Below are positions 35,755-45,837 of a DNA stretch of 64,000 bases, piece by piece. Made by a program: the position numbers and the translations under genes. Within the stretch, counting starts at the first letter, position 1, and every line of letters starts with the position of its first letter. Source of the DNA: an uncultured Oscillospiraceae bacterium (GTDB lineage Bacteria; Bacillota; Clostridia; Oscillospirales; Oscillospiraceae); the NCBI GenBank assembly GCA_964586875.1, contig CAZPJH010000001.1:6721-70720 (forward strand). Direction: 5' to 3'. Below the pieces are notes generated by a model. It saw only the letters and a list, made by a program, of their open reading frames with translations. It did no database searches and was not told the origin of the DNA.

Positions 35755-36422
35755 AGCCGTACCACCTTATAACCTACGCCGCGCATGGTGATGATTTTGA
35801 AATCCGTATTATCCCGAAACCGTTCCCTTAGGCGGCCAATATGGACATCCACGGTGTGACTGTCAGAACCGGTGTCGTAGCCCCAGATCTCATCCATCAG
35901 CTGCTGACGGGTCAGGATCTTGCCGGGCAGAGAAGCCAGTTTGTACAGCAGCATAAACTCTTTTTGAGGCAGGACCAGGGTTTCTCTGGGGGTGGACACG
36001 GTAAGAGAGTCCATCTCCATGATGGTACTGCCCATGACCAGACGGCGATTGTTGATCATCTGGGCTCGACGCAGCAAGGCTTCCACTCGCAGTACCATTT
36101 CATTGACATTGATGGGTTTGACCATGTAATCATCTGTGCCGGAGAGAAAGCCCTGGCGCATATCATCAAAGGCATCCCGGGCGGTGATCATCATAATGGG
36201 AATGCTGTGTCCACTGTCGCGGAGCTGACGCACCAACGCATAGCCGTCTACCACAGGCATCATAATATCGGAGATGATCATGTCGAAATAATCATTTTCC
36301 ATGGCATCCAGTGCTTCCTGACCGTTTGCCACACCGGTAACGGCATAGCCATGGGAAATCAGCACATGGGAAAATAGCTGCCGCAGCTCTCGATCATCTT
36401 CAGCAATCAAAATTTTCATCAT
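35751..36422 (-). CDS. OmpR-family response regulator (HssR-like)
   Basis: AEDD, DIMMP, DDYMVKP, TVDVHIGRLR. Confidence 0.93.
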   Translation of the reverse strand: MMKILIAEDDRELRQLFSHVLISHGYAVTGVANGQEALDAMENDYFDMIISDIMMPVVDGYALVRQLRDSGHSIPIMMITARDAFDDMRQGFLSGTDDYMVKPINVNEMVLRVEALLRRAQMINNRRLVMGSTIMEMDSLTVSTPRETLVLPQKEFMLLYKLASLPGKILTRQQLMDEIWGYDTGSDSHTVDVHIGRLRERFRDNTDFKIITMRGVGYKVVRL

Positions 36423-36639
36423 AGGGTATTGCCTCCGTTCTCTGTGTGGATTTATGATAACACAGAAGATCTATTTTTGCCAATAGTAAATATGATCTTA
36501 TCAGAGAAATATAAAGAAAATGTCAACAGAAAATCAATAATTGTTGAAAAATAACCAGTATTTTCGGCGTTTTAGCCACATGAAAATTCCAATTTTTTAT
36601 GCTATTATATATAAAAACTTAGGAAAGCAGGGAAAAGCA

Positions 36640-37143
36640 ATGGGGTTTCAGTGCGGAGATCGGGTGGTTTATGGGGTGCATGGGGTATGCTGTGTCAGTG
36701 ATATCCAACGAAAAACGGTGGACAGGAAATCGGTGGAGTACTATGTGTTGACCCCTTGCAGCCAGGTGGATGCCACTTATTATGTGCCCACTCACAACGC
36801 TGCTGCTGTGGCCAAAATGCGTAGAATGCTGACAGCAGCAGAGCTGGATGCGCTGCTGGACTCGGATGAGATCCAGGCCGATTGCTGGATCGCCGAAGAA
36901 AATCTGCGTAAGGAATGCTATCGAAAAATGATCGCCCGGGCGGACTGTGCAGAGCTGATCGGGATGATCCGATCCTTACATCTTCATAAAAAGCGACAAC
37001 TGGAAGCAGGGAAGAAGTTTCATCTGTGTGATGAAAACTTTTTGAAAGATGCCCAGCGATTGATCGCATCGGAAGTGTCCCAAATCCTGGACATTCAGCC
37101 GGGAGAGGTGGAGGAATACATCCGCCGCCGGGTGGAAAAATAA
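36640..37143 (+). CDS. CarD family protein
   Basis: FQCGDRVVYGVHGVC..I, YYVLTP, YVP. Confidence 0.85.
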   Translation: MGFQCGDRVVYGVHGVCCVSDIQRKTVDRKSVEYYVLTPCSQVDATYYVPTHNAAAVAKMRRMLTAAELDALLDSDEIQADCWIAEENLRKECYRKMIARADCAELIGMIRSLHLHKKRQLEAGKKFHLCDENFLKDAQRLIASEVSQILDIQPGEVEEYIRRRVEK

Positions 37144-37181
37144 GAGATCGTTTGTGACAGTCTATGTAAATGTGTATTTTT

Positions 37182-37213
37182 AGGCGTATTGCGGTGGCAA
37201 TACGCCTTTTTTT
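37182..37213 (+). terminator. Terminator (variant of the GGCGTGTTGCA family)
   Basis: aggcgtattgc-ggtg-gcaatacgcct-tttttt. Confidence 0.75.
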
Positions 37214-37299
37214 ACCCGATTTCTGGAAAAAGAAACATATTTACATCTATACATGCGATATGGTATAATTACAGCAAATAAATGGGTAGGGGGCGGAAG

Positions 37300-37671
37300 A
37301 TGCGATTACAATTTCAAAAAGGGGACTGTATTGCCATCGCAGTGATTCTTTTGCTGGCTGTTGCACTGGTGATATTCTTCCTGCCCGGATCATCGGTGCC
37401 GGCAGCCAGCGTGGAGATCTATCAGAATGGCCAACTGGTAAAAACGATGCCCCTGTCCCGGGATGACAGCTATACCCTTGCAGGGGATTATACCAATGTT
37501 ATTGCTGTCAAGGATGGGAAGGTTTCTATGATCTACTCGGATTGCCCGGGGGGAGATTGCATACACAGCGGTTCGATTTCCTCCACAGGGCGTAGCATCG
37601 TATGCCTGCCCAATGGGGTAGAGGTACGCATTGTTGGAAAGACCGACAATGTGGACTTTGTAGTGGGGTGA
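37300..37671 (+). CDS. NusG domain II / DUF1312 membrane-anchored protein (EetB-like)
   Basis: KGD..I TM helix; SDCPGGDCIHSG.I.....IVCLPN. Confidence 0.88.
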   Translation: MRLQFQKGDCIAIAVILLLAVALVIFFLPGSSVPAASVEIYQNGQLVKTMPLSRDDSYTLAGDYTNVIAVKDGKVSMIYSDCPGGDCIHSGSISSTGRSIVCLPNGVEVRIVGKTDNVDFVVG

Positions 37672-37675
37672 TGTG

Positions 37676-38197
37676 ATGACCAAAACAAAAAAGATCGCAT
37701 TGTGTGCGGTGCTGATTGCTTTGGCACTGGCATTATCCTATTTGGAACGATTTATCCCACTGCAATTGGTCATTCCACTGCCGGGGATAAAACTGGGACT
37801 GGCCAATATCGTGACGGTGATCGCCTTGTATGTGTTGGGGGCAAAATATGCCTTTGCCATTTTGATCCCCCGTTGTATTTTGGGCGCTGTTTTTGGCGGC
37901 GGACTGACAGGTTTGCTTTTTTCGCTGACCGGGGGTGTGCTTGCCATGGGAGTGATGGCGCTGTGCCGAAAAATACGGATATTCTCTGTTTATGGTGTCA
38001 GCATTCTAGGGGCGGCGGCTCATAATATCGGGCAAATCATTGCGGCGATGGCAGTACTTGGTTCGGTTTATGTGGCATCGTACTTGCCTTACTTGCTACT
38101 GGTGGCGGTTGTGACAGGTTTTGCTACCGGTACGGCCAGTGCCGGCGTGTTAAAAATTCTAGGAAAAGTAAATTATTTGGCTTCATGGAGGGAATAA
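37676..38197 (+). CDS. Gx transporter / Hpre_diP_synt_I family membrane protein (EetA-like)
   Basis: LSYLE..IP..PGIKLGLAN, SLTGG, GVSILGAAAHNIGQ. Confidence 0.9.
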   Translation: MTKTKKIALCAVLIALALALSYLERFIPLQLVIPLPGIKLGLANIVTVIALYVLGAKYAFAILIPRCILGAVFGGGLTGLLFSLTGGVLAMGVMALCRKIRIFSVYGVSILGAAAHNIGQIIAAMAVLGSVYVASYLPYLLLVAVVTGFATGTASAGVLKILGKVNYLASWRE

Positions 38198-38198
38198 A

Positions 38199-39200
38199 AT
38201 GAAGAAAAAAGTGATGATATTTGTATCTGTTCTGGTGCTGGCAGCGATGCTGTGCGGTTGCGTAGGCACCACGGTGGTGGTCGGCGGTGATTGCACCTGC
38301 GACAGCACAAATAACCAGCCCTATGTTCCCAAAGCGGGTGAAGTGCAGGTGGGTCTGGCTGTGCTGACCGATGTTTCTGCTGCAGACGGTAAGATCAGCT
38401 ACAATATTTTGATGGCTGCGGTGGCTGTGGACGATGAAGGTGTGATCACGGATTGTGTGATCGACGGTGTTTCCACTGACGTGACCATGGAGGAAGTTAC
38501 AGCCGGCTGGACAAAGGATGTCAAGACCAAGAACGAGCTGGGGGACAGCTACGGTATGGTTGCCTGGGGCGGCGCAAAATATGAATGGGATCAGCAGGCC
38601 AAAAATTTTGCCGATTACGTCAAGGGAAAGACCGCTGATCAGGTTTCCGGCATTGCAATCGCTGAAAACGGCAAGCCTGCAGACAGCGATTTGGCAGCTT
38701 CTGTGACCATTGCCATTGGCGACTTTGTACAGGTAGTGAAAGCAGCTGCAAAGAATGCACATTATGTGGCAGACAGCTCCGATGCGCTGGTGTTGGCCGC
38801 TACGCCTGCACTCAGTGGCGGAGATGGCTATGCACAGCTGGATATGGACGTGACTGCTCTGAGTGAAAAAGACGGTGTCATCACCGGATGCTATATTGAT
38901 GCGGTGCAGGCGAAGGTGACTTTTGATGGCGAAGGCAATGTGACCACCGACCTGGCTGCCGGATTCAAGACGAAAAATGAACTGGGTAAGGATTATGGTA
39001 TGGTTGCCTGGGGCGGTGCAAAATACGAATGGTATCAACAGGCAGCGAATTTTGCCGACTATGTTAAGGGTAAAACAGCTGCTCAGGTGGTAGGCATTGC
39101 CGTCGGTGAGGGCGGCAAGCCCGGGGATGCAGACTTGAGCGCATCGGTCACCATTGCCATCGGCGGATTCCAGGCACTGATCCAGAAGGCACTGCAATGA
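38199..39200 (+). CDS. Lipoprotein with two tandem FMN-binding-like domains (candidate ApbE substrate, PplA-like role)
   Basis: Lipobox LCGC; two near-identical KTKNELG..YGMVAWGGAKYEW..QA.NFADYVKGKT...DL(A/S)ASVTI repeats; overlaps apbE. Confidence 0.65.
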   Translation: MKKKVMIFVSVLVLAAMLCGCVGTTVVVGGDCTCDSTNNQPYVPKAGEVQVGLAVLTDVSAADGKISYNILMAAVAVDDEGVITDCVIDGVSTDVTMEEVTAGWTKDVKTKNELGDSYGMVAWGGAKYEWDQQAKNFADYVKGKTADQVSGIAIAENGKPADSDLAASVTIAIGDFVQVVKAAAKNAHYVADSSDALVLAATPALSGGDGYAQLDMDVTALSEKDGVITGCYIDAVQAKVTFDGEGNVTTDLAAGFKTKNELGKDYGMVAWGGAKYEWYQQAANFADYVKGKTAAQVVGIAVGEGGKPGDADLSASVTIAIGGFQALIQKALQ

Positions 39201-40219
39201 AAAAGCTGAGCTTGATTTTGGCACTTTGTCTGCTGTTGACAGGCTGCGTTATGGCTCAGGAGTCGGAGAAAAAACAATACACGGCTTCTTTTTTGAACCT
39301 GTTTGATACAGTGACGACCATCGTTGGCCGGGCAGAAAATCAGAAAGAATTTGAGCAGGTCACCCAAAAGATCCATGACGAATTGGAGCATTATCACCAG
39401 CTTTTTGACATTTATCACGATTATGAAGGCATCCATAATATCAAGACTATTAACGATCAGGCAGGCCGTCAGTCGGTGAAAGTGGAGCAGACCATTATTG
39501 ATTTTCTGCAAGATTGCAAAAAATACGCTACTGTCACCGATGGCAAGGTCAATGTGGCTATGGGTAGCGTGCTGCGGTTGTGGCATGAGGCAAGAGAAAA
39601 TGCCATCAATGACCCTGCCAATGCTCAACTGCCTCAGGAAAATGCCCTGCAAGATGCTGCTACCCATACCAATTTGGATGCAGTGATCATTGATGAAGAT
39701 AATTCCACTGTATTTATCAGCGATCAGTACCTGCAATTAGATGTGGGAGCGATCGCCAAAGGATGGGCCACCCAACGGGTGGCGGAAAATGCGCCCGAAG
39801 GGCTTCTGATCAGCGTCGGTGGTAATGTTTGTGCCACCGGGCCGAAGATCCAGCCGGACACGCCTTGGGTAGTGGGTGTTCAGGATCCTCAGGGAACAGA
39901 TGCCTATTTACACAGGTTGAATGTGATGGGCGGCTGCGTGGTCACCAGCGGTGATTATCAGCGTTATTTTGTGGTGGAGGGGAAGACCTATCATCATATC
40001 ATCGATCCCCAAACCCTGATGCCCGGAACTTATTGGCGTTCCGTGACGGTGGTTTGTGCCGATTCCGGATTGGCAGATGCACTGTCGACGGCCCTGTTTC
40101 TGCTACCGATGGAAGAGGGAAACGCTCTGCTGAAGAAAACCGGTGCAGAAGCCATGTGGGTGGACGCAGAGGGCCGTATATCCTATTCGGAAGGTTTTAA
40201 ATCTTATATTCGAGATTAA
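39197..40219 (+). CDS. apbE: FAD:protein FMN transferase, lipoprotein
   Basis: Lipobox LTGC, LDVGAIAKGW, GGNV, TSGDYQRYF, YHHIIDP.T, ADALST. Confidence 0.95.
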   Translation: MKKLSLILALCLLLTGCVMAQESEKKQYTASFLNLFDTVTTIVGRAENQKEFEQVTQKIHDELEHYHQLFDIYHDYEGIHNIKTINDQAGRQSVKVEQTIIDFLQDCKKYATVTDGKVNVAMGSVLRLWHEARENAINDPANAQLPQENALQDAATHTNLDAVIIDEDNSTVFISDQYLQLDVGAIAKGWATQRVAENAPEGLLISVGGNVCATGPKIQPDTPWVVGVQDPQGTDAYLHRLNVMGGCVVTSGDYQRYFVVEGKTYHHIIDPQTLMPGTYWRSVTVVCADSGLADALSTALFLLPMEEGNALLKKTGAEAMWVDAEGRISYSEGFKSYIRD

Positions 40220-40230
40220 GAGGTGAAAAA

Positions 40231-41562
40231 ATGAGTAAACGCCTATTTCTTGGTGGCATTCACCCCAAGTATAACAAGGAAATGTCTACCGGGGTGGAAG
40301 ATTTTCAGATGGTTACCCCCAAACAGGTGATCATTCCCATGGTTCAGCATATTGGCGCACCCTGTACGCCGTTGGTTTGCGTAGGCGATCGGGTCCTTCG
40401 TGGTCAGAAGATCGGTGACGGAGAAGGTCTGTGTGTACCTGTTCACGCATCTGTATCCGGTACGGTGGTGGCAGTGGAACCCAGAAAGCATACCAGTGGC
40501 CGTGAAGTAATGGCAGTGGTGATCGAAAATGACTTTCAGGACAGCCCTATCCAAACGGAAAAAAGAGATGTCTCCCAGATGGATAACGACACGATCCTGC
40601 ATACCATTCGGGAGGCTGGCATCGTTGGTATGGGTGGTGCGGCCTTCCCGGGCAGCGTGAAAGCCGTTTCTGCCATGGGCCATGCGGATACCCTTATTGC
40701 CAATGCCTGCGAGTGCGAACCGTATATTACCGCAGACGACTCCCTGCTACGAACCAATCCACATCAGGTTCTGCAGGGAATGCAGATCTTGGCAAAGGTG
40801 CTGGAGCCGGAACGGATCGTTCTGGCGGTGGAGGATAATAAGCGTCGGGCAATTGAAATCTTAAAGCCCTTGCAAAAGGAATTTCCAAATATTGAACTGG
40901 TGATCTTGCCCACCCGTTACCCTCAGGGCTCTGAAAAGCAGCTGATCCAGGCGGTAACTGGACGGCAAGTACCTTCCGGCCAACTGCCGGTTTCCGTCGG
41001 TTGTGCAGTGTTTAATGTGGCCACTTTTGCAGCAATTTATCGGGCGGTGTGTCTGGGACTGCCCATGACACAGCGGATCGTCACTGTGACCGGAGAGGCC
41101 ATCCGTCAGCCCCAGAATTTTATTGTTCGCTTTGGTACCCCTTTCCATGACCTGATCGAAAAAGCCGGTGGCCTTCATGACGAAACGGAACGGGTTATCA
41201 GCGGTGGCCCAATGATGGGATTTGCACAAAGCGATTTGAACGTGCCGGTGGTGAAGGCTACCAATGCTATTTTGTGCCTGCACCGGGATGAGAACGGTGC
41301 TGCCCAAAATCCTGTTTGTTTGCGATGCGGCAAGTGTGTGGCGGTCTGTCCCATGGGATTGCAGCCGTTGTACATGGGGCGCTATGCCAAGGCCGGTAAT
41401 GTGAAAGAATTGGCTCGGCTGCATCTGCTTGACTGCATGGAATGTGGAAGCTGTGCCTTTACCTGTCCCGGAAAACTGCCCCTGGTTGAGATGTTCCGCA
41501 AGGGAAAGGGGCTTTTGCGTCAGGCAATGGCAGAGCAAAAAGCAAAGGAGGAGAAGAAATGA
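40231..41562 (+). CDS. rnfC: Rnf/Rsx electron transport subunit C
   Basis: QHIGAP, HASVSG, GIVGMGGAAFP, ECEPYITAD, YPQGSEK, GGPMMG, CLRCGKCVAVCP, CMECGSCAFTCP. Confidence 0.95.
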   Translation: MSKRLFLGGIHPKYNKEMSTGVEDFQMVTPKQVIIPMVQHIGAPCTPLVCVGDRVLRGQKIGDGEGLCVPVHASVSGTVVAVEPRKHTSGREVMAVVIENDFQDSPIQTEKRDVSQMDNDTILHTIREAGIVGMGGAAFPGSVKAVSAMGHADTLIANACECEPYITADDSLLRTNPHQVLQGMQILAKVLEPERIVLAVEDNKRRAIEILKPLQKEFPNIELVILPTRYPQGSEKQLIQAVTGRQVPSGQLPVSVGCAVFNVATFAAIYRAVCLGLPMTQRIVTVTGEAIRQPQNFIVRFGTPFHDLIEKAGGLHDETERVISGGPMMGFAQSDLNVPVVKATNAILCLHRDENGAAQNPVCLRCGKCVAVCPMGLQPLYMGRYAKAGNVKELARLHLLDCMECGSCAFTCPGKLPLVEMFRKGKGLLRQAMAEQKAKEEKK

Positions 41563-42506
41563 ATTTGATGGTTGCATCTTCTCCTCATATTCGAGGAGAT
41601 TTTAGAACCAGTCGGCTGATGCAGGATGTGGTGATCGCCCTGCTGCCTGCACTGGCGGTGGGAACATTTGTGCTGGGCTACCGTGCTTTGATCGTTACGG
41701 TGTTTTCGGTGGCAGCGGCGATCATCGGTGAGTGGCTCTATGGTGTCGTAACGAAAAAACGCAGCACATTGGCAGATTGCTCCGCCATGGTCACAGGAAT
41801 GTTGTTTGCCATGACTCTGCCTGCTTCCGTTCCTTATTGGGTAGCGATTTTGGGAAGCATGTTTGCAGTGGTGGTCACAAAAATGATGTGCGGCGGACTG
41901 GGACAAAATGTGTTTAATCCTGCACTTTCGGCCAGAGCACTGATGATGCTGTTGGTGCCGTCTGCGCTGACTCGTTATCAGACTTTGGGGGTGGATGGTG
42001 TGACTGCGGCCACACCGCTGCACCATATGGTGATGCCTGCACTTCCAGAACAGAGCTTGCTGGATATGCTCCTTGGTAATACGCCCGGTTCCATCGGCGA
42101 GATCTCTGCACTGGCATTGTTGGCAGGTGGACTGTACCTGATCGTGCGTAAGGTCATTTCTCCCAGGATCCCCCTGGCCTATTTGGGTACGGTTGCTGTG
42201 GTTACGCTGGTGTTCCATAAAACGGATCATGCGTTTGCGTGGATGGGATACCAGTTGCTTAGCGGCGGCTTAATGCTGGGTGCGATCTTTATGGCAACGG
42301 ATTACGCAACCTCTCCGGTAACACCGTGGGGACAAGTGATTTATGGCATTGGCTGCGGCTTGTTGACTGTGCTGTTCCGCTATTTTGGAATTTTCCCGGA
42401 GGGTGTAACGTATGCCATCCTGATCATGAATTTGGGGGCATGGGCCATTGATCGCATGACACCGCCCCGGCGTTATGGTCAGAAGGGAGGCCGGAACCAT
42501 GGTTAA
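41559..42506 (+). CDS. rnfD: Rnf subunit D
   Basis: SSPHI, GGLGQNVFNPA, DGVTAATPL (FMN-Thr), PGSIGE.S, FMATD..TSP, PEGV. Confidence 0.93.
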   Translation: MNLMVASSPHIRGDFRTSRLMQDVVIALLPALAVGTFVLGYRALIVTVFSVAAAIIGEWLYGVVTKKRSTLADCSAMVTGMLFAMTLPASVPYWVAILGSMFAVVVTKMMCGGLGQNVFNPALSARALMMLLVPSALTRYQTLGVDGVTAATPLHHMVMPALPEQSLLDMLLGNTPGSIGEISALALLAGGLYLIVRKVISPRIPLAYLGTVAVVTLVFHKTDHAFAWMGYQLLSGGLMLGAIFMATDYATSPVTPWGQVIYGIGCGLLTVLFRYFGIFPEGVTYAILIMNLGAWAIDRMTPPRRYGQKGGRNHG

Positions 42507-43035
42507 ATCGATTTTAACACCGCTGCTGGCTATTCTGTTGGCAGCAGCACTGCTGTTGGGTGCCCATTGGGGACTTTCTGATCTGCAGGAAGCCAATGCA
42601 GAGAAGGAACTGAATGCCAAGCTTCTGGAAATTCTGCCTGGCAATTCAGAATTTGCTTCTGAAGAATATACCGGCACAGATGCCAATATCCGAGCAGTCT
42701 ATAAAGGCAACAACGGCTATGTGGTGCTGACGGCAACACAGGGATACGCCGGGCCGATTACGATGCTGGTTGGTGTCAGCAATGAGGGCAAGGTCACAGG
42801 TTTGCAGATCCGCCAAATGTCAGAAACCTATGGCCTTGGCTGGAATGCGCTGACAGATGTTGAATTTCTAAAACAGTTTTTGAACACCAAGGGGGATGCT
42901 CAGGTGGGCGAAAATGTGGATGCCATTGCCGGCGCTACTGTTACATCCAAAGCAGTGACCCGTTGTGTTAATTCGGCAGTCGCTTTTGTCACCGGCGCGG
43001 ATGCAGACTCCGGCGCCACATCCTGGGGAGGCTGA
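42499..43035 (+). CDS. rnfG: RnfG-like FMN-binding protein
   Basis: N-terminal TM, GYAGPI.MLVGV, ETYGLG, VDAIAGATVTS, plus a C-terminal DADSGATS. Confidence 0.88.
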   Translation: MVKSILTPLLAILLAAALLLGAHWGLSDLQEANAEKELNAKLLEILPGNSEFASEEYTGTDANIRAVYKGNNGYVVLTATQGYAGPITMLVGVSNEGKVTGLQIRQMSETYGLGWNALTDVEFLKQFLNTKGDAQVGENVDAIAGATVTSKAVTRCVNSAVAFVTGADADSGATSWGG

Positions 43036-43038
43036 GCC

Positions 43039-43476
43039 ATGAAAAAAGTGAAGAATTTAAGAATGGTTTTGCTGACAGCGGTGTTGCTGGGACTTCTGAT
43101 GGTGATGATGGTGGTCAAAGCCTGCTATCCCGCTGTGATCCTGCCGATGCTGAATATTCCCAATATGGTACTGATCAGCGTAGTCGTGTTGCTGCTGGAA
43201 AACCGGCTGGATCCTTTGGCAGAGAGCAACTGGTGGTGCAACTTGCTGTTGGCGGTGCTTGCCTTTGGCCTGCTGCCACTGACGGCAGGGGTTACGTCCC
43301 TTCTTGATTTCTGGAAGGTGGGACTGGTAGGCGGTGGCGCCTTTACGCTGACGGCGCTTGCGATGGACTCTGTTCGAGAACGGTTGGCCTCCGGCACAAA
43401 AACAGGTGGCGCACTGTTGGTTACTGCCTTAGGAATATACTTGGCAGCGCAGTGCTTTTCCGGAATATTGGTGTAA
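43039..43476 (+). CDS. Small polytopic membrane protein, degenerate RnfA-like
   Basis: C-terminus AFTLTALAMDSVRERL...LAAQCFSGIL resembles the RnfA C-terminus; the conserved RnfA Cys motifs are not recognisable. Confidence 0.55.
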   Translation: MKKVKNLRMVLLTAVLLGLLMVMMVVKACYPAVILPMLNIPNMVLISVVVLLLENRLDPLAESNWWCNLLLAVLAFGLLPLTAGVTSLLDFWKVGLVGGGAFTLTALAMDSVRERLASGTKTGGALLVTALGIYLAAQCFSGILV

Positions 43477-43482
43477 TGTTTT

Positions 43483-43509
43483 AGGGCGTGTTGCAATGCA
43501 ACACGCCCT
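43483..43509. repeat. GGCGTGTTGCA-family palindrome / bidirectional terminator, copy 2
   Basis: agggcgtgttgca-a-tgcaacacgccct. Confidence 0.75.
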
Positions 43510-43513
43510 TGCT

Positions 43514-44347
43514 TTATCCAAATCTTCTGGCATAGCCACAGCGGCGACAGAGAGGTTCTACCGCTTCGTGGTTGGAAAACCCATGGTAAATGGCCTGTGC
43601 CCGGGAACCGGACAGGATCTGTTCCATCTCCTGGGTGAAAAGATTGCCCAGTGCCAGATCTCCGTCGTGATCCAGGCAGCAGGGGACCACTGTTCCATCG
43701 CACAGAATGCCCAGCTGATCACGCAGACCATAGCAAAAACGAGGGATCTCTCCTTCTGATGCAGACAGATCCGGCCAGTCAAATTTATCGCCGTATTCCA
43801 AATAGATCTTTGGAGCAATTTGGGTCCCTTGCCGTTGGGGAACCCAGTCCTGTGGGAAAAAGGAAGCCATTCGTTTTAAAATCTGATCGTTCATAGCATC
43901 TTGACCACCCTGATTCCACAGCCGGTAGACCACCAGCTTTTCCCCACCGGCTGCGACACCAAAGCGGAAGCAATTGTCCAAATAATCTTCAAAGGGGATG
44001 GGACAATCGTTTGCTTCAAAGGCGTGGAGGGAAATGTTGACCTTGTGCAACGCAGGGGAAGACAGCAAAAGTGCCTGCTGTTTCGGTAACAGTGTACCGT
44101 TGGTGGTGATGATCACACGAAAACCAAAGCTGTGGGCGATTTTCAAAAACTGATCCAGCTGCGGGTGGCACAGTGGCTCCCCCATCAGATGAAAATAGAT
44201 AAAATCGGTGTATGGGCGAATTTTGGAGAGCAGGACAGAGAATTCTTCGGCATTCATCCGCCGACCGGGGCGGCGTGTGCCCGGACAGAAGCTGCATTCT
44301 AAGTTGCATAGATTGGATATTTCAATGTAAACTTTACGAAAACGCAT
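43514..44347 (-). CDS. Radical SAM protein with SPASM/twitch domain
   Basis: CNLECSFC, MGEP, TTNG, DGTVVPCCLD, CRRC. Confidence 0.92.
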   Translation of the reverse strand: MRFRKVYIEISNLCNLECSFCPGTRRPGRRMNAEEFSVLLSKIRPYTDFIYFHLMGEPLCHPQLDQFLKIAHSFGFRVIITTNGTLLPKQQALLLSSPALHKVNISLHAFEANDCPIPFEDYLDNCFRFGVAAGGEKLVVYRLWNQGGQDAMNDQILKRMASFFPQDWVPQRQGTQIAPKIYLEYGDKFDWPDLSASEGEIPRFCYGLRDQLGILCDGTVVPCCLDHDGDLALGNLFTQEMEQILSGSRAQAIYHGFSNHEAVEPLCRRCGYARRFG

Positions 44348-44466
44348 GGTATTCTCCTCAATGGTTCTTTTCTATGACTATAACTGCCCGAAGTGAAAAA
44401 TGCAACTATAATTTGTGTTACAGATGTTGACATTTGGTTTATAATAGAAGAAAAGGGAGGCAGATT

Positions 44467-45837
44467 ATGGAAATTGATGTGTTGTTAGAAAAACAGAAAA
44501 TGTTTTTTCAATCCGGTCAAACGCTGGATATCCAATGGCGTATTGCCGGACTGAAAAGGTTGAAAATATGGATCAAGACCCACGAAGATGCCATTGCAGC
44601 CGCACTTTATGCTGACCTTGGAAAAAGCAAAGAGGAAAGCTATATGTGTGAAACAGGAATGGTGCTGTCGGAACTGTCTTATCTGATCAAGCACACAGCC
44701 TCCTTTGCAAGGAAAAAGCGGGTGCATACGCCCATGGCTCAATTCTGCGCCAAAAGCTATACCATAGCGACACCTTACGGAAACACGCTGATCATGAGCC
44801 CTTGGAATTATCCCTTCTTGCTGACGGTTGGCCCCCTGGCTGATGCCATTGCCACAGGCAATACGGCAATTATAAAGCCCAGTGCATATAGTCCTGCCAC
44901 ATCGAAGCTGATAGCGGATATGGCAGTGGCCTGCTTTTCCGGGGAGCATGTGGCGGTGGTACTGGGCGGGCGAAAGGAAAACGCAGATCTTCTGAAAAAG
45001 AAGTTTGACTTTGTTTTTTTTACCGGCAGTCAGGAAGTGGGGAAAGTGGTACTGCGGCATACTGCAGAGCATTTAACGCCGGCTGTGCTGGAGTTGGGGG
45101 GAAAAAGCCCTGTGATCGTGGATGCCACGGCCAATATTCCGCTGGCAGCCAAACGGATCATTTTTGGAAAGATCATCAACTGTGGGCAGACCTGCGTTGC
45201 ACCGGACTATATCCTGTGCCATGCCTCTGTCAAAGCACAGCTGATCATCGAACTGAAAAAGCAGATCAGCGTACAGCTGGGCGACCGCCCTTTGGAAAAT
45301 CCAAACTATGGCCATATGATCAGCCAAAAGCATTTTGAACGGGTATGGAATTTGATCGACTATGAAAAAGTGGTCTGTGGCGGACTGTGTGATCCGGAAA
45401 AGTTAAAAATTGCACCGACCATCATGGCTGATGTTACTTGGGAAGATGCGGTCATGGGGCAGGAGATTTTTGGCCCGGTGTTGCCCGTGCTGACCTTTGA
45501 AAATCTGGGTGAGGTTTATGAGCAGCTGAAAAACCGACCCAAGCCTTTGGCACTATACCTGTTCTCCACAGACCGAAATGTCATTAAATTCATCACTACC
45601 GGCATTTCCTACGGCGGCGGATGTATTAACGATACCATTATTCATCTGGCCACGGAGCAAATGGGCTTTGGCGGCGTAGGAGAGAGCGGTATGGGCGCAT
45701 ACCATGGAAAGGCCGGTTTTGAAACCTTCAGCCACCGAAAAAGCATCGTGGACAAGAAAAACTGGATCGATATGCCTATGCGCTATCAGCCTTACAGGAA
45801 AATACACGATCAATTGGTGCATCTCTTCCTAAAATAA
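44467..45837 (+). CDS. Aldehyde dehydrogenase (ALDH3/YwdH-like)
   Basis: PWNYP, FTGS, LELGGKSP, GQTCVAPD, EIFGPVL, FGGVGESGMG. Confidence 0.95.
   Translation: MEIDVLLEKQKMFFQSGQTLDIQWRIAGLKRLKIWIKTHEDAIAAALYADLGKSKEESYMCETGMVLSELSYLIKHTASFARKKRVHTPMAQFCAKSYTIATPYGNTLIMSPWNYPFLLTVGPLADAIATGNTAIIKPSAYSPATSKLIADMAVACFSGEHVAVVLGGRKENADLLKKKFDFVFFTGSQEVGKVVLRHTAEHLTPAVLELGGKSPVIVDATANIPLAAKRIIFGKIINCGQTCVAPDYILCHASVKAQLIIELKKQISVQLGDRPLENPNYGHMISQKHFERVWNLIDYEKVVCGGLCDPEKLKIAPTIMADVTWEDAVMGQEIFGPVLPVLTFENLGEVYEQLKNRPKPLALYLFSTDRNVIKFITTGISYGGGCINDTIIHLATEQMGFGGVGESGMGAYHGKAGFETFSHRKSIVDKKNWIDMPMRYQPYRKIHDQLVHLFLK

Follow-up and report, generated by a model that had tools for sequence, protein, structure and literature searches.

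In the published path through the Rnf complex, electrons pass from RnfB to the [2Fe-2S] cluster of RnfA/E, then through the flavin mononucleotide (FMN) of RnfG, the FMN and riboflavin of RnfD and the clusters of RnfC to NAD+ (PMC12174285). Two-subunit Nqr/Rnf-like systems combine an RnfD-NqrF fusion with an RnfG-like protein and export electrons one way (PMC8238504, PMC11334425). In the flavin-based extracellular electron transfer (EET) of Listeria, the energy-coupling factor S component-like (ECF-S-like) protein EetB binds flavin adenine dinucleotide (FAD) and is required for its export to FmnB/ApbE; membership of PF07456 served to define eetB, which colocalises with eetA in 3,328 genomes, while 572 genomes of Clostridia have it together with Rnf genes (PMC9973259). 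Here we describe an eight-gene operon in a 64,000-nucleotide stretch of DNA from an uncultured Oscillospiraceae bacterium (GenBank assembly GCA_964586875.1, contig CAZPJH010000001.1, positions 6,721 to 70,720; the window hereafter). It encodes paralogues of RnfC, RnfD and RnfG together with a two-domain lipoprotein, an ApbE-type FMN transferase, an EetB-family protein with its neighbour, and a 145-aa membrane protein. On balance we favour, with somewhat better than even confidence, the reading that this operon is a self-contained, cut-down derivative of Rnf that works as a one-way conduit from NADH to flavoproteins at the membrane's outer face, without ferredoxin, the RnfA/E [2Fe-2S] cluster or a quinone.

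Gene content, conservation and independence from RnfA/E/B

The proteins of the cassette were assigned to families by Pfam and NCBIfam profile searches. RnfC and RnfD matched their profiles well above the cut-offs (TIGR01945, 522.5 bits against 246; TIGR01946, 288.6 bits against 207). RnfG was recognized by its FMN_bind domain (PF04205, 66.5 bits, 3.5e-18) and scored 69.6 on TIGR01947, below the cut-off of 102. Among the window genes searched, no rnfE, rnfA or rnfB was found within the operon or after it. The same composition recurs elsewhere. A scan with the 145-aa family gave 46 species-representative loci, all in metagenome-assembled genomes (MAGs) of gut origin, human or animal, that bear the labels Faecousia, Lawsonibacter, Oscillospiraceae or Clostridia. 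The order lipoprotein-ApbE-RnfC-RnfD-RnfG-145aa was identical at every locus long enough to display it, with the ApbE gene after the lipoprotein gene and the 145-aa gene directly 3' of rnfG at each of them. Of the 38 loci extending as far as the lipoprotein gene, 14 have the NusG_II/PF07456 pair upstream of this six-gene core. Metagenome contigs carrying distant homologues of the lipoprotein hold the same six genes between unrelated flanks. No RnfE, RnfA or RnfB gene (PF02508 included) was detected within 9 kb at any of the 46 loci. The absence of RnfE and RnfB stated in the original prediction is borne out, and an intact rnf operon in relatives, which that prediction had named as a ground for refuting it, occupied the locus in none of the 46. 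RnfC and RnfD of the relatives are 60-92% identical to those of the window, which together with the strict gene order indicates purifying selection. The cassette is a patchy accessory module: of 400 other genomes sampled from the same family, 15 had the marker; they belong to 8 of 134 genera, and a single one of five congeners had it.

The genome of the window is a 1.81-Mb MAG in 214 contigs, 79.7% complete with 2.1% contamination. A genome-wide search for orphan rnfE, rnfA or rnfB genes that might complete the cassette, which the original prediction had named as one way to overturn it, found these genes in a second, complete rnfCDGEAB. Contig C90 ends within canonical rnfC-D-G-E, rnfE-A-B lies on contig C57, and the two contigs can be joined through about 55 identical bases that overlap inside rnfE. 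The only RnfB of the genome is in this canonical operon (C57). The cassette proteins are 51% (RnfC), 48% (RnfD) and 42% (RnfG) identical to their canonical paralogues in the same genome. A further contig, C187 (1-1146), carries a third rnfC, truncated where the contig begins (344 aa), and the start of an rnfD; identity of this RnfC is only 41% to the canonical RnfC and 37% to that of the cassette, and C187 could be a third Rnf-type locus or contamination.

We then compared the carriers with each other. PF02508 genes occur in 29 of 38 carrier genomes, usually two of them, corresponding to one canonical Rnf, and are missing from the other nine. Each of these nine has exactly one RnfD, that of the cassette. 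In a tree of cassette RnfC and RnfD, five of the nine form one clade with 100% support, sister to the clade of the window, and the other four are scattered. Among the 15 carriers with quality figures, G400, which is 99% complete and of the same genus, and G415, at 96% completeness, were both without RnfA/E and without RnfB above the cut-off, and their one RnfD adjoins the 145-aa gene; the window's own genome was the positive control. RnfB likewise gave no match above the cut-off in G152 and G168. Since carriers without RnfA/E/B exist, we concluded that the cassette does not need the ferredoxin half of Rnf. Another carrier, G237 (99% complete, 7 contigs), has the marker on a contig of more than 1.1 Mb and a canonical RnfA/E pair as well; it may be a cultured isolate.

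The layout of the operon is given in Table 1. Its eight open reading frames are intact and run from 37282 to 43476 on the forward strand, separated by gaps of 1-3 nt and one of 11 nt, or overlapping by 4-32 nt. In a consensus scan of the 9 kb from 36000 to 45000 the promoter-like site was the top scorer (11 of 12 matches); it starts 33 nt past a terminator-like hairpin with a T-run (37182-37207) that ends the upstream CarD-like gene. The tightly coupled eight-gene operon and its candidate promoter, both foreseen in the original prediction, are upheld by the reading frames, family matches and site scan. Of the proposed terminator, the hairpin is real and the T-tail is poor. This hairpin is common to the operon end and to a convergent radical S-adenosylmethionine (SAM)/SPASM gene (43514-44347, reverse strand), whose stop directly adjoins it; an aldehyde dehydrogenase gene (44434-45837, forward strand) comes next. 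The flanking genes (a two-component system, the CarD-like gene, radical SAM/SPASM and aldehyde dehydrogenase) are unrelated to the cassette and differ between loci.

Table 1. Operon features and their positions in the window
Feature	Positions	Strand	Basis or remark
Sigma-70-like promoter TTTACA-18-TATAAT, TG-extended	37240..37269	+	consensus match only
NusG_II-domain membrane-anchored protein, 129 aa	37282..37671	+	PF07009
EetB-family (Hpre_diP_synt_I / Gx, ECF-S-like) membrane protein, 174 aa	37673..38197	+	PF07456
Two-domain lipoprotein, 333 aa	38199..39200	+	lipobox L-C-G-C
ApbE/FmnB-type FAD:protein FMN transferase, lipoprotein, 340 aa	39197..40219	+	PF02424, lipobox L-T-G-C
RnfC paralogue, 443 aa	40231..41562	+	TIGR01945
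RnfD paralogue, 315 aa	41559..42506	+	TIGR01946
RnfG paralogue, 186 aa, transmembrane anchor	42475..43035	+	FMN_bind PF04205
Five-helix membrane protein, 145 aa, unnamed family	43039..43476	+	probable RnfA relic
Terminator-like hairpin	43483..43509	+	12-bp stem, 8 GC pairs, 3-nt loop, poor T-run

Candidate cofactor sites in the cassette proteins

The redox motifs of the Rnf subunits are well kept. All full-length RnfC orthologues retain G-M-G-G-A-A-F-P (NADH/FMN site) and two C-x2-C-x2-C-x3-C-P motifs for [4Fe-4S] clusters. RnfD has the flavinylation threonine T152 within T-A-A-T-P-L, and across 26 sequences A151-T152-P153-L154 show little or no variation; its mean column identity is 76%. It matches PF03116 only and has no fused NqrF-like domain, the NADH module being the separate RnfC. 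In RnfG the FMN_bind motif reads D-A-I-A-G-A-T-V-T with T155 as the flavinylation threonine, and D149, G153-S158, D176, A181 and T182 are invariant in 25 orthologues. The last three of these residues lie in a C-terminal tail (residues 172-186, D-A-D-S-G-A-T-S-W-G-G) that forms a perfect seven-residue flavinylation motif at the C terminus. The C-terminal sequence of every cassette RnfG orthologue is T-G-A-D-x-x-S-[GS]-A-T-[ST]-W-G-G, and the canonical RnfG of the same genome (contig C90) ends without such a tail. A seven-residue D-x-x-[ST]-G-A-[ST] tag placed at a C terminus is fully flavinylated by ApbE, which is the basis of the engineered flavin-tag (PMC12052999). Judged by its motif, the RnfG tail is likely a second flavin site (FMN on T182) on a flexible arm; if flavinylated, it would be a natural counterpart of the engineered tag.

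The lipoprotein has no match in Pfam or NCBIfam, and of its homologues, at least 2,794 in number, none has a Pfam domain or an informative name. Its AlphaFold2 model (pLDDT, or predicted local distance difference test score, 88.9; predicted template modelling score, pTM, 0.81) shows two repeats of about 145 aa, each made of three long strands plus helices, and the pTM suggests that the two modelled domains form a packed pair. Each repeat ends in D-L-x-x-[STG]-[AV]-T-I, and T170 and T318 are invariant across 32 homologues. The family profile matches one solved chain, PDB 2KZX from Clostridium thermocellum (E 2.6e-7), and the profile alignment places D-L-S-A-S-V-T-I of the repeat on D-A-I-S-G-A-T-I of 2KZX. 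An exhaustive structural comparison of the model also gave 2KZX (Z 7.8), followed by 3O6U (Z 7.4) and 8P2A (Z 6.9), the last a domain of a multi-flavinylated protein; NqrC and RnfG scored lower. Huang et al. have 3O6U as their reference for flavinylated FMN-bind1 proteins; FMN-bind2 domains, by their account, are about 160 aa long, have an extended beta-sheet and occur in pairs with a flavinylation site in each (PMC11334425). Compared by description, the lipoprotein is consistent with this published account of paired domains and is probably a double FMN-bind2-type protein (PMC11334425). Flavinylation of the lipoprotein is likely from its motifs, and the protein is probably a doubly flavinylated surface electron carrier with a PplA-like role. 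Foldseek of the model gave no match at E up to 0.001. Its IscU-like matches were set aside as a shared alpha+beta arrangement, FMN-bind being preferred on the profile match and the motif alignment.

Some features of the lipoprotein family fall outside this assignment. Homologues of 507-521 aa exist, a length consistent with a third FMN-bind2-type repeat. The disordered N-terminal linker carries a conserved C-x-C besides the lipobox cysteine (C32 nearly invariant, C34 invariant), and each FMN-bind domain has one invariant cysteine at an equivalent place (C86 and C231). From this conservation, a thiol/disulfide or metal role for these cysteines is possible.

The 145-aa protein belongs to a family of 638 homologues, nearly all exactly 145 aa long; at 50% identity, 366 clusters of the family were counted in 1.84 billion representatives. 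Its model has five helices (pLDDT 79). Direct searches said little: no match in Pfam or NCBIfam, no consistent Pfam family in hmmscan of 32 members (PF02508 in one of the 32, E 1.9), and no match of the family profile to PDB sequences at E up to 10. Foldseek placed RnfA/NqrE chains on top (8AHX_A, 9ERI_A, 7ZC6_A, 8A1W_E), but at E 1-3, and VIA-align of the model against 48,161 chains returned generic helical bundles only (Z up to 8; TetR, MlaE, ABCG). Profile-profile comparison was more informative. Against an RnfA alignment from carrier genomes the probability was 52% with a score of 33.0 (maximum 22.8 for shuffled and 12.7 for reversed alignments), and hhalign of a 113-sequence family alignment against RnfA gave a probability of 87%, E 3.7e-6 and a score of 40.9, where 40 local shuffles reached at most 21.3. 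The hhalign match spans RnfA residues 81-191, the C-terminal two thirds, with a common core G-G-x-x-F-T ... S-x-R-[ED]-R; the family gave no signal against RnfE. Conservation does not exceed 40% in any Cys or His column, and RnfA's T-N-C ligand region is aligned to a gap. For want of a conserved Cys or His, an Fe-S role for the protein was rejected. On these alignments the 145-aa protein is quite probably a shortened, cysteine-less descendant of RnfA kept as a structural subunit. The earlier claim that the operon has no RnfA therefore stands for PF02508 genes, of which there is none, and needs qualifying for the 145-aa protein, which resembles the C-terminal two thirds of RnfA at the profile level. 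A complex prediction of RnfD, RnfG and the 145-aa protein scored 0.66, and 0.48 with RnfD replaced, which speaks neither for nor against binding.

The remaining genes belong to flavin supply and attachment. ApbE (PF02424, 218.9 bits, 1.2e-64) and the EetB-family protein (PF07456, 131.6 bits, 2.9e-38, with a weak ECF_trnsprt match too) are clear, as is the NusG_II protein (PF07009, 91.8 bits, 3.8e-26). By family, the PF07456 protein is probably the FAD-export component that supplies ApbE, and its adjacency to that gene makes the NusG_II protein likely the EetA-type partner of EetB. The original prediction had equated NusG-II with EetB and the Gx protein with EetA; the two labels were swapped, PF07456 being the EetB family (PMC9973259). 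Because the EetB family exports FAD and is no electron carrier, the proposed "hybrid Eet" character is reduced to a flavinylation-support module plus a PplA-like lipoprotein.

Proposed electron path and rival explanations

From the gene content, conservation, cofactor motifs, fold assignments and independence from RnfA/E/B set out above, we infer an assembly, a set of flavinylated sites and a direction of flow. Without RnfB and RnfA/E, the published Rnf path stays continuous from the NAD(H) site, so that RnfC, RnfD and RnfG alone would span the membrane to an outward-facing FMN (PMC12174285). NADH would reduce the FMN of RnfC, and electrons would move via the two RnfC [4Fe-4S] clusters to the riboflavin and FMN sites of RnfD (FMN on T152), on to the covalent FMN of RnfG (T155), possibly from there to a second FMN carried by T182 in its C-terminal tail, and would then reach the lipoprotein with its two FMN sites (T170 and T318). 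The lipoprotein would reduce an extracellular or cell-surface acceptor, e.g., free flavin, Fe(III), quinone-like compounds or oxygen. ApbE would attach the FMNs outside the cell, using FAD delivered by the EetB-family protein and its NusG_II partner, and the 145-aa protein would be a structural membrane subunit, derived from RnfA, with no Fe-S cluster bound. The physiological role is likely regeneration of NAD+ in a quinone-less fermenter. One-way export by partial Nqr/Rnf-like systems provides a published precedent (PMC8238504). The quinone-independent route from NADH through RnfC/D and RnfG to the lipoprotein that the original prediction put forward fits the published Rnf path (PMC12174285), and it keeps the status of an inference.

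In the window's genome, at 79.7% completeness, we found no UbiA-family prenyltransferase, no full-length or extracytosolic fumarate-reductase-like flavoenzyme (FAD_binding_2 matched only an N-terminal Rossmann motif) and no candidate for a linked terminal reductase; FMN_bind occurred only in the two RnfG proteins. As neither UbiA nor a fumarate-reductase-like enzyme was found, the lipoprotein is likely the terminal carrier, by analogy with PplA in Listeria.

Several points weigh against this scheme. The whole case is built from sequence, comparative genomics and models. Positions 5 and 6 of the lipoprotein motif do not conform to the D-x-x-[ST]-G-A-[ST] consensus (PMC12052999). Canonical RnfG shuttles between RnfA/E and RnfD, and the scheme does not explain how RnfG would dock onto the lipoprotein. 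With no acceptor gene linked to the cassette, one can only guess at the outside partner and at which way electrons flow. The nine PF02508-less genomes of the 38-carrier set come without completeness figures; canonical Rnf is present in the other 29, and in 13 of the 15 carriers with quality figures, and sharing of subunits is possible there.

That last point leads to a distinctly unlikely alternative, in which cassette RnfC/D/G would join canonical RnfE/A/B as a second ferredoxin/NAD+ isoform, with the lipoprotein as a side branch. The window's genome and most carriers do hold one canonical rnfCDGEAB, and complete multi-flavinylated Rnf clusters with a proposed side branch have been published (PMC8238504). 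Against it are the carriers that have no RnfA/E or RnfB, among them the five-species clade and the genomes of 99% and 96% completeness; moreover, every cassette locus has its own membrane protein at the rnfE/A position, and cassette and canonical subunits are only 42-51% identical. A decaying or misassembled rnf operon without function would suit the fragmented state of the window's MAG, and we give it next to no credence: all frames are intact, and synteny is strict and sequences conserved in 46 species and 8 of 134 sampled genera. The 145-aa family is constant in length, and 6.1-kb Logan contigs from two other studies span 37795-43943, including the operon end, at about 99.3% identity; as independent contigs cover the operon end, misassembly is excluded.

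The half complex might instead conserve energy, moving Na+ or H+ through RnfD as electrons pass from NADH to a more positive outside acceptor, and so act as a respiratory coupling site. For NQR, a Na+ path with a binding site has been proposed in RnfD/NqrB (PMC12174285), the cassette RnfD is highly conserved, and electron flow from NADH to flavin, Fe(III) or O2 is exergonic. Current models, however, tie ion movement to a redox-driven inward/outward switch of the RnfA/E [2Fe-2S] cluster (PMC12174285), which is absent here, the 145-aa protein having no conserved Cys or His; we regard a pump as unlikely. Electron uptake, from reduced extracellular shuttles or a surface donor to NAD+, is very improbable in our estimate. 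Rnf chemistry is reversible in principle and the original prediction had not fixed a direction, but reduction of NAD+ (about -320 mV) by flavin-level donors would be uphill without an ion-motive coupling site, and a donor-oxidising enzyme was linked to the cassette in none of the 46 loci. The one-way conduit from NADH to the lipoprotein is the reading that we retain. A bolder form of it is doubtful, though worth stating: the cassette could represent a new self-sufficient class of NADH-driven electron exporter that arose from Rnf by loss of the ferredoxin half, with five covalent FMNs in a row (one in RnfD, two in RnfG including the swinging tail, two in the lipoprotein), and serve as a respiratory-like sink for quinone-less, cytochrome-less gut Oscillospiraceae, possibly ion-coupled through RnfD.

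Relation to described systems

One-way export by partial Nqr/Rnf-like systems has already been published as an idea (PMC8238504, PMC11334425); the architecture of the present cassette appears to be new, as we found no description of it. The full-text literature gave nothing relevant on partial complexes of the rnfCDG type, which are also absent from a 2025 RNF/NQR review. The published operational definitions (RnfB for RNF; a PF03116+PF00175 fusion for NQR/RNF-like systems) would miss the cassette, so it has probably been under-counted in surveys. Many gut Clostridia without quinones and cytochromes must still shed the electrons of NADH, and some reduce extracellular acceptors. A conserved module linking NADH directly to surface flavoproteins, if confirmed, would offer them a concrete route for electron disposal. 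It would also mean that the C-D-G arm of Rnf works as an independent transmembrane wire, which bears on the evolution of Rnf and Nqr and on the site of ion coupling.

With canonical Rnf (7ZC6, 8AHX, 9ERI) the cassette shares homologous RnfC, RnfD and RnfG and, at the level of motifs, the NADH/FMN site, two 4Fe-4S motifs and both flavinylation threonines; the order C-D-G and the dependence on ApbE are the same, and the last cassette gene is probably derived from RnfA. It differs in having no RnfB and no RnfE and in an RnfA-like protein of 145 aa instead of about 194, without the cluster cysteines, so that the cassette would offer no ferredoxin entry and no intramembrane [2Fe-2S] cluster, whose four cysteines belong to the RnfA/RnfE pair in canonical Rnf. 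It adds the putative double-FMN lipoprotein, an ApbE gene within the operon, the probable EetA/EetB pair and the flavin-tag-like tail of RnfG. The canonical operon coexists with the cassette or, in some species, is replaced by it. Multi-flavinylated Rnf clusters also combine Rnf subunits with extra outward-facing FMN domains, for which diversion to extracytosolic acceptors has been proposed (PMC8238504); those clusters are complete, with RnfB and RnfA/E, whereas the ferredoxin half is missing in the cassette.

An extracytosolic FMN_bind subunit next to ApbE is a feature that the cassette, with RnfG (PF04205) and ApbE (PF02424) in the same operon, shares with the Nqr/Rnf-like systems (PMC8238504, PMC11334425). 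In those systems the PF03116 domain is fused to an NqrF-type PF00175 domain and has no RnfD flavinylation threonine, and they occur mostly in Actinobacteria and the Candidate Phyla Radiation. The cassette, in contrast, has a separate Fe-S protein RnfC, keeps the RnfD threonine, includes a relic RnfA-like subunit and the lipoprotein, and is found in Oscillospiraceae. To the flavin-based EET of Listeria monocytogenes (PMC9973259, PMC8238504) the cassette is linked by a lipoprotein with two putative flavin domains in the role of PplA, by ApbE/FmnB and by EetB with its partner, and FAD export would support extracytosolic flavinylation here as it does in Listeria. Family searches of the cassette found no Ndh2, DmkA/DmkB or FmnA, with no genome search aimed at Ndh2. 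The lipoprotein domains of the cassette are probably of the FMN-bind2 type and are missed by PF04205. Electrons enter the Listeria system from the quinone pool, whereas in the cassette they would enter through RnfC, RnfD and RnfG.

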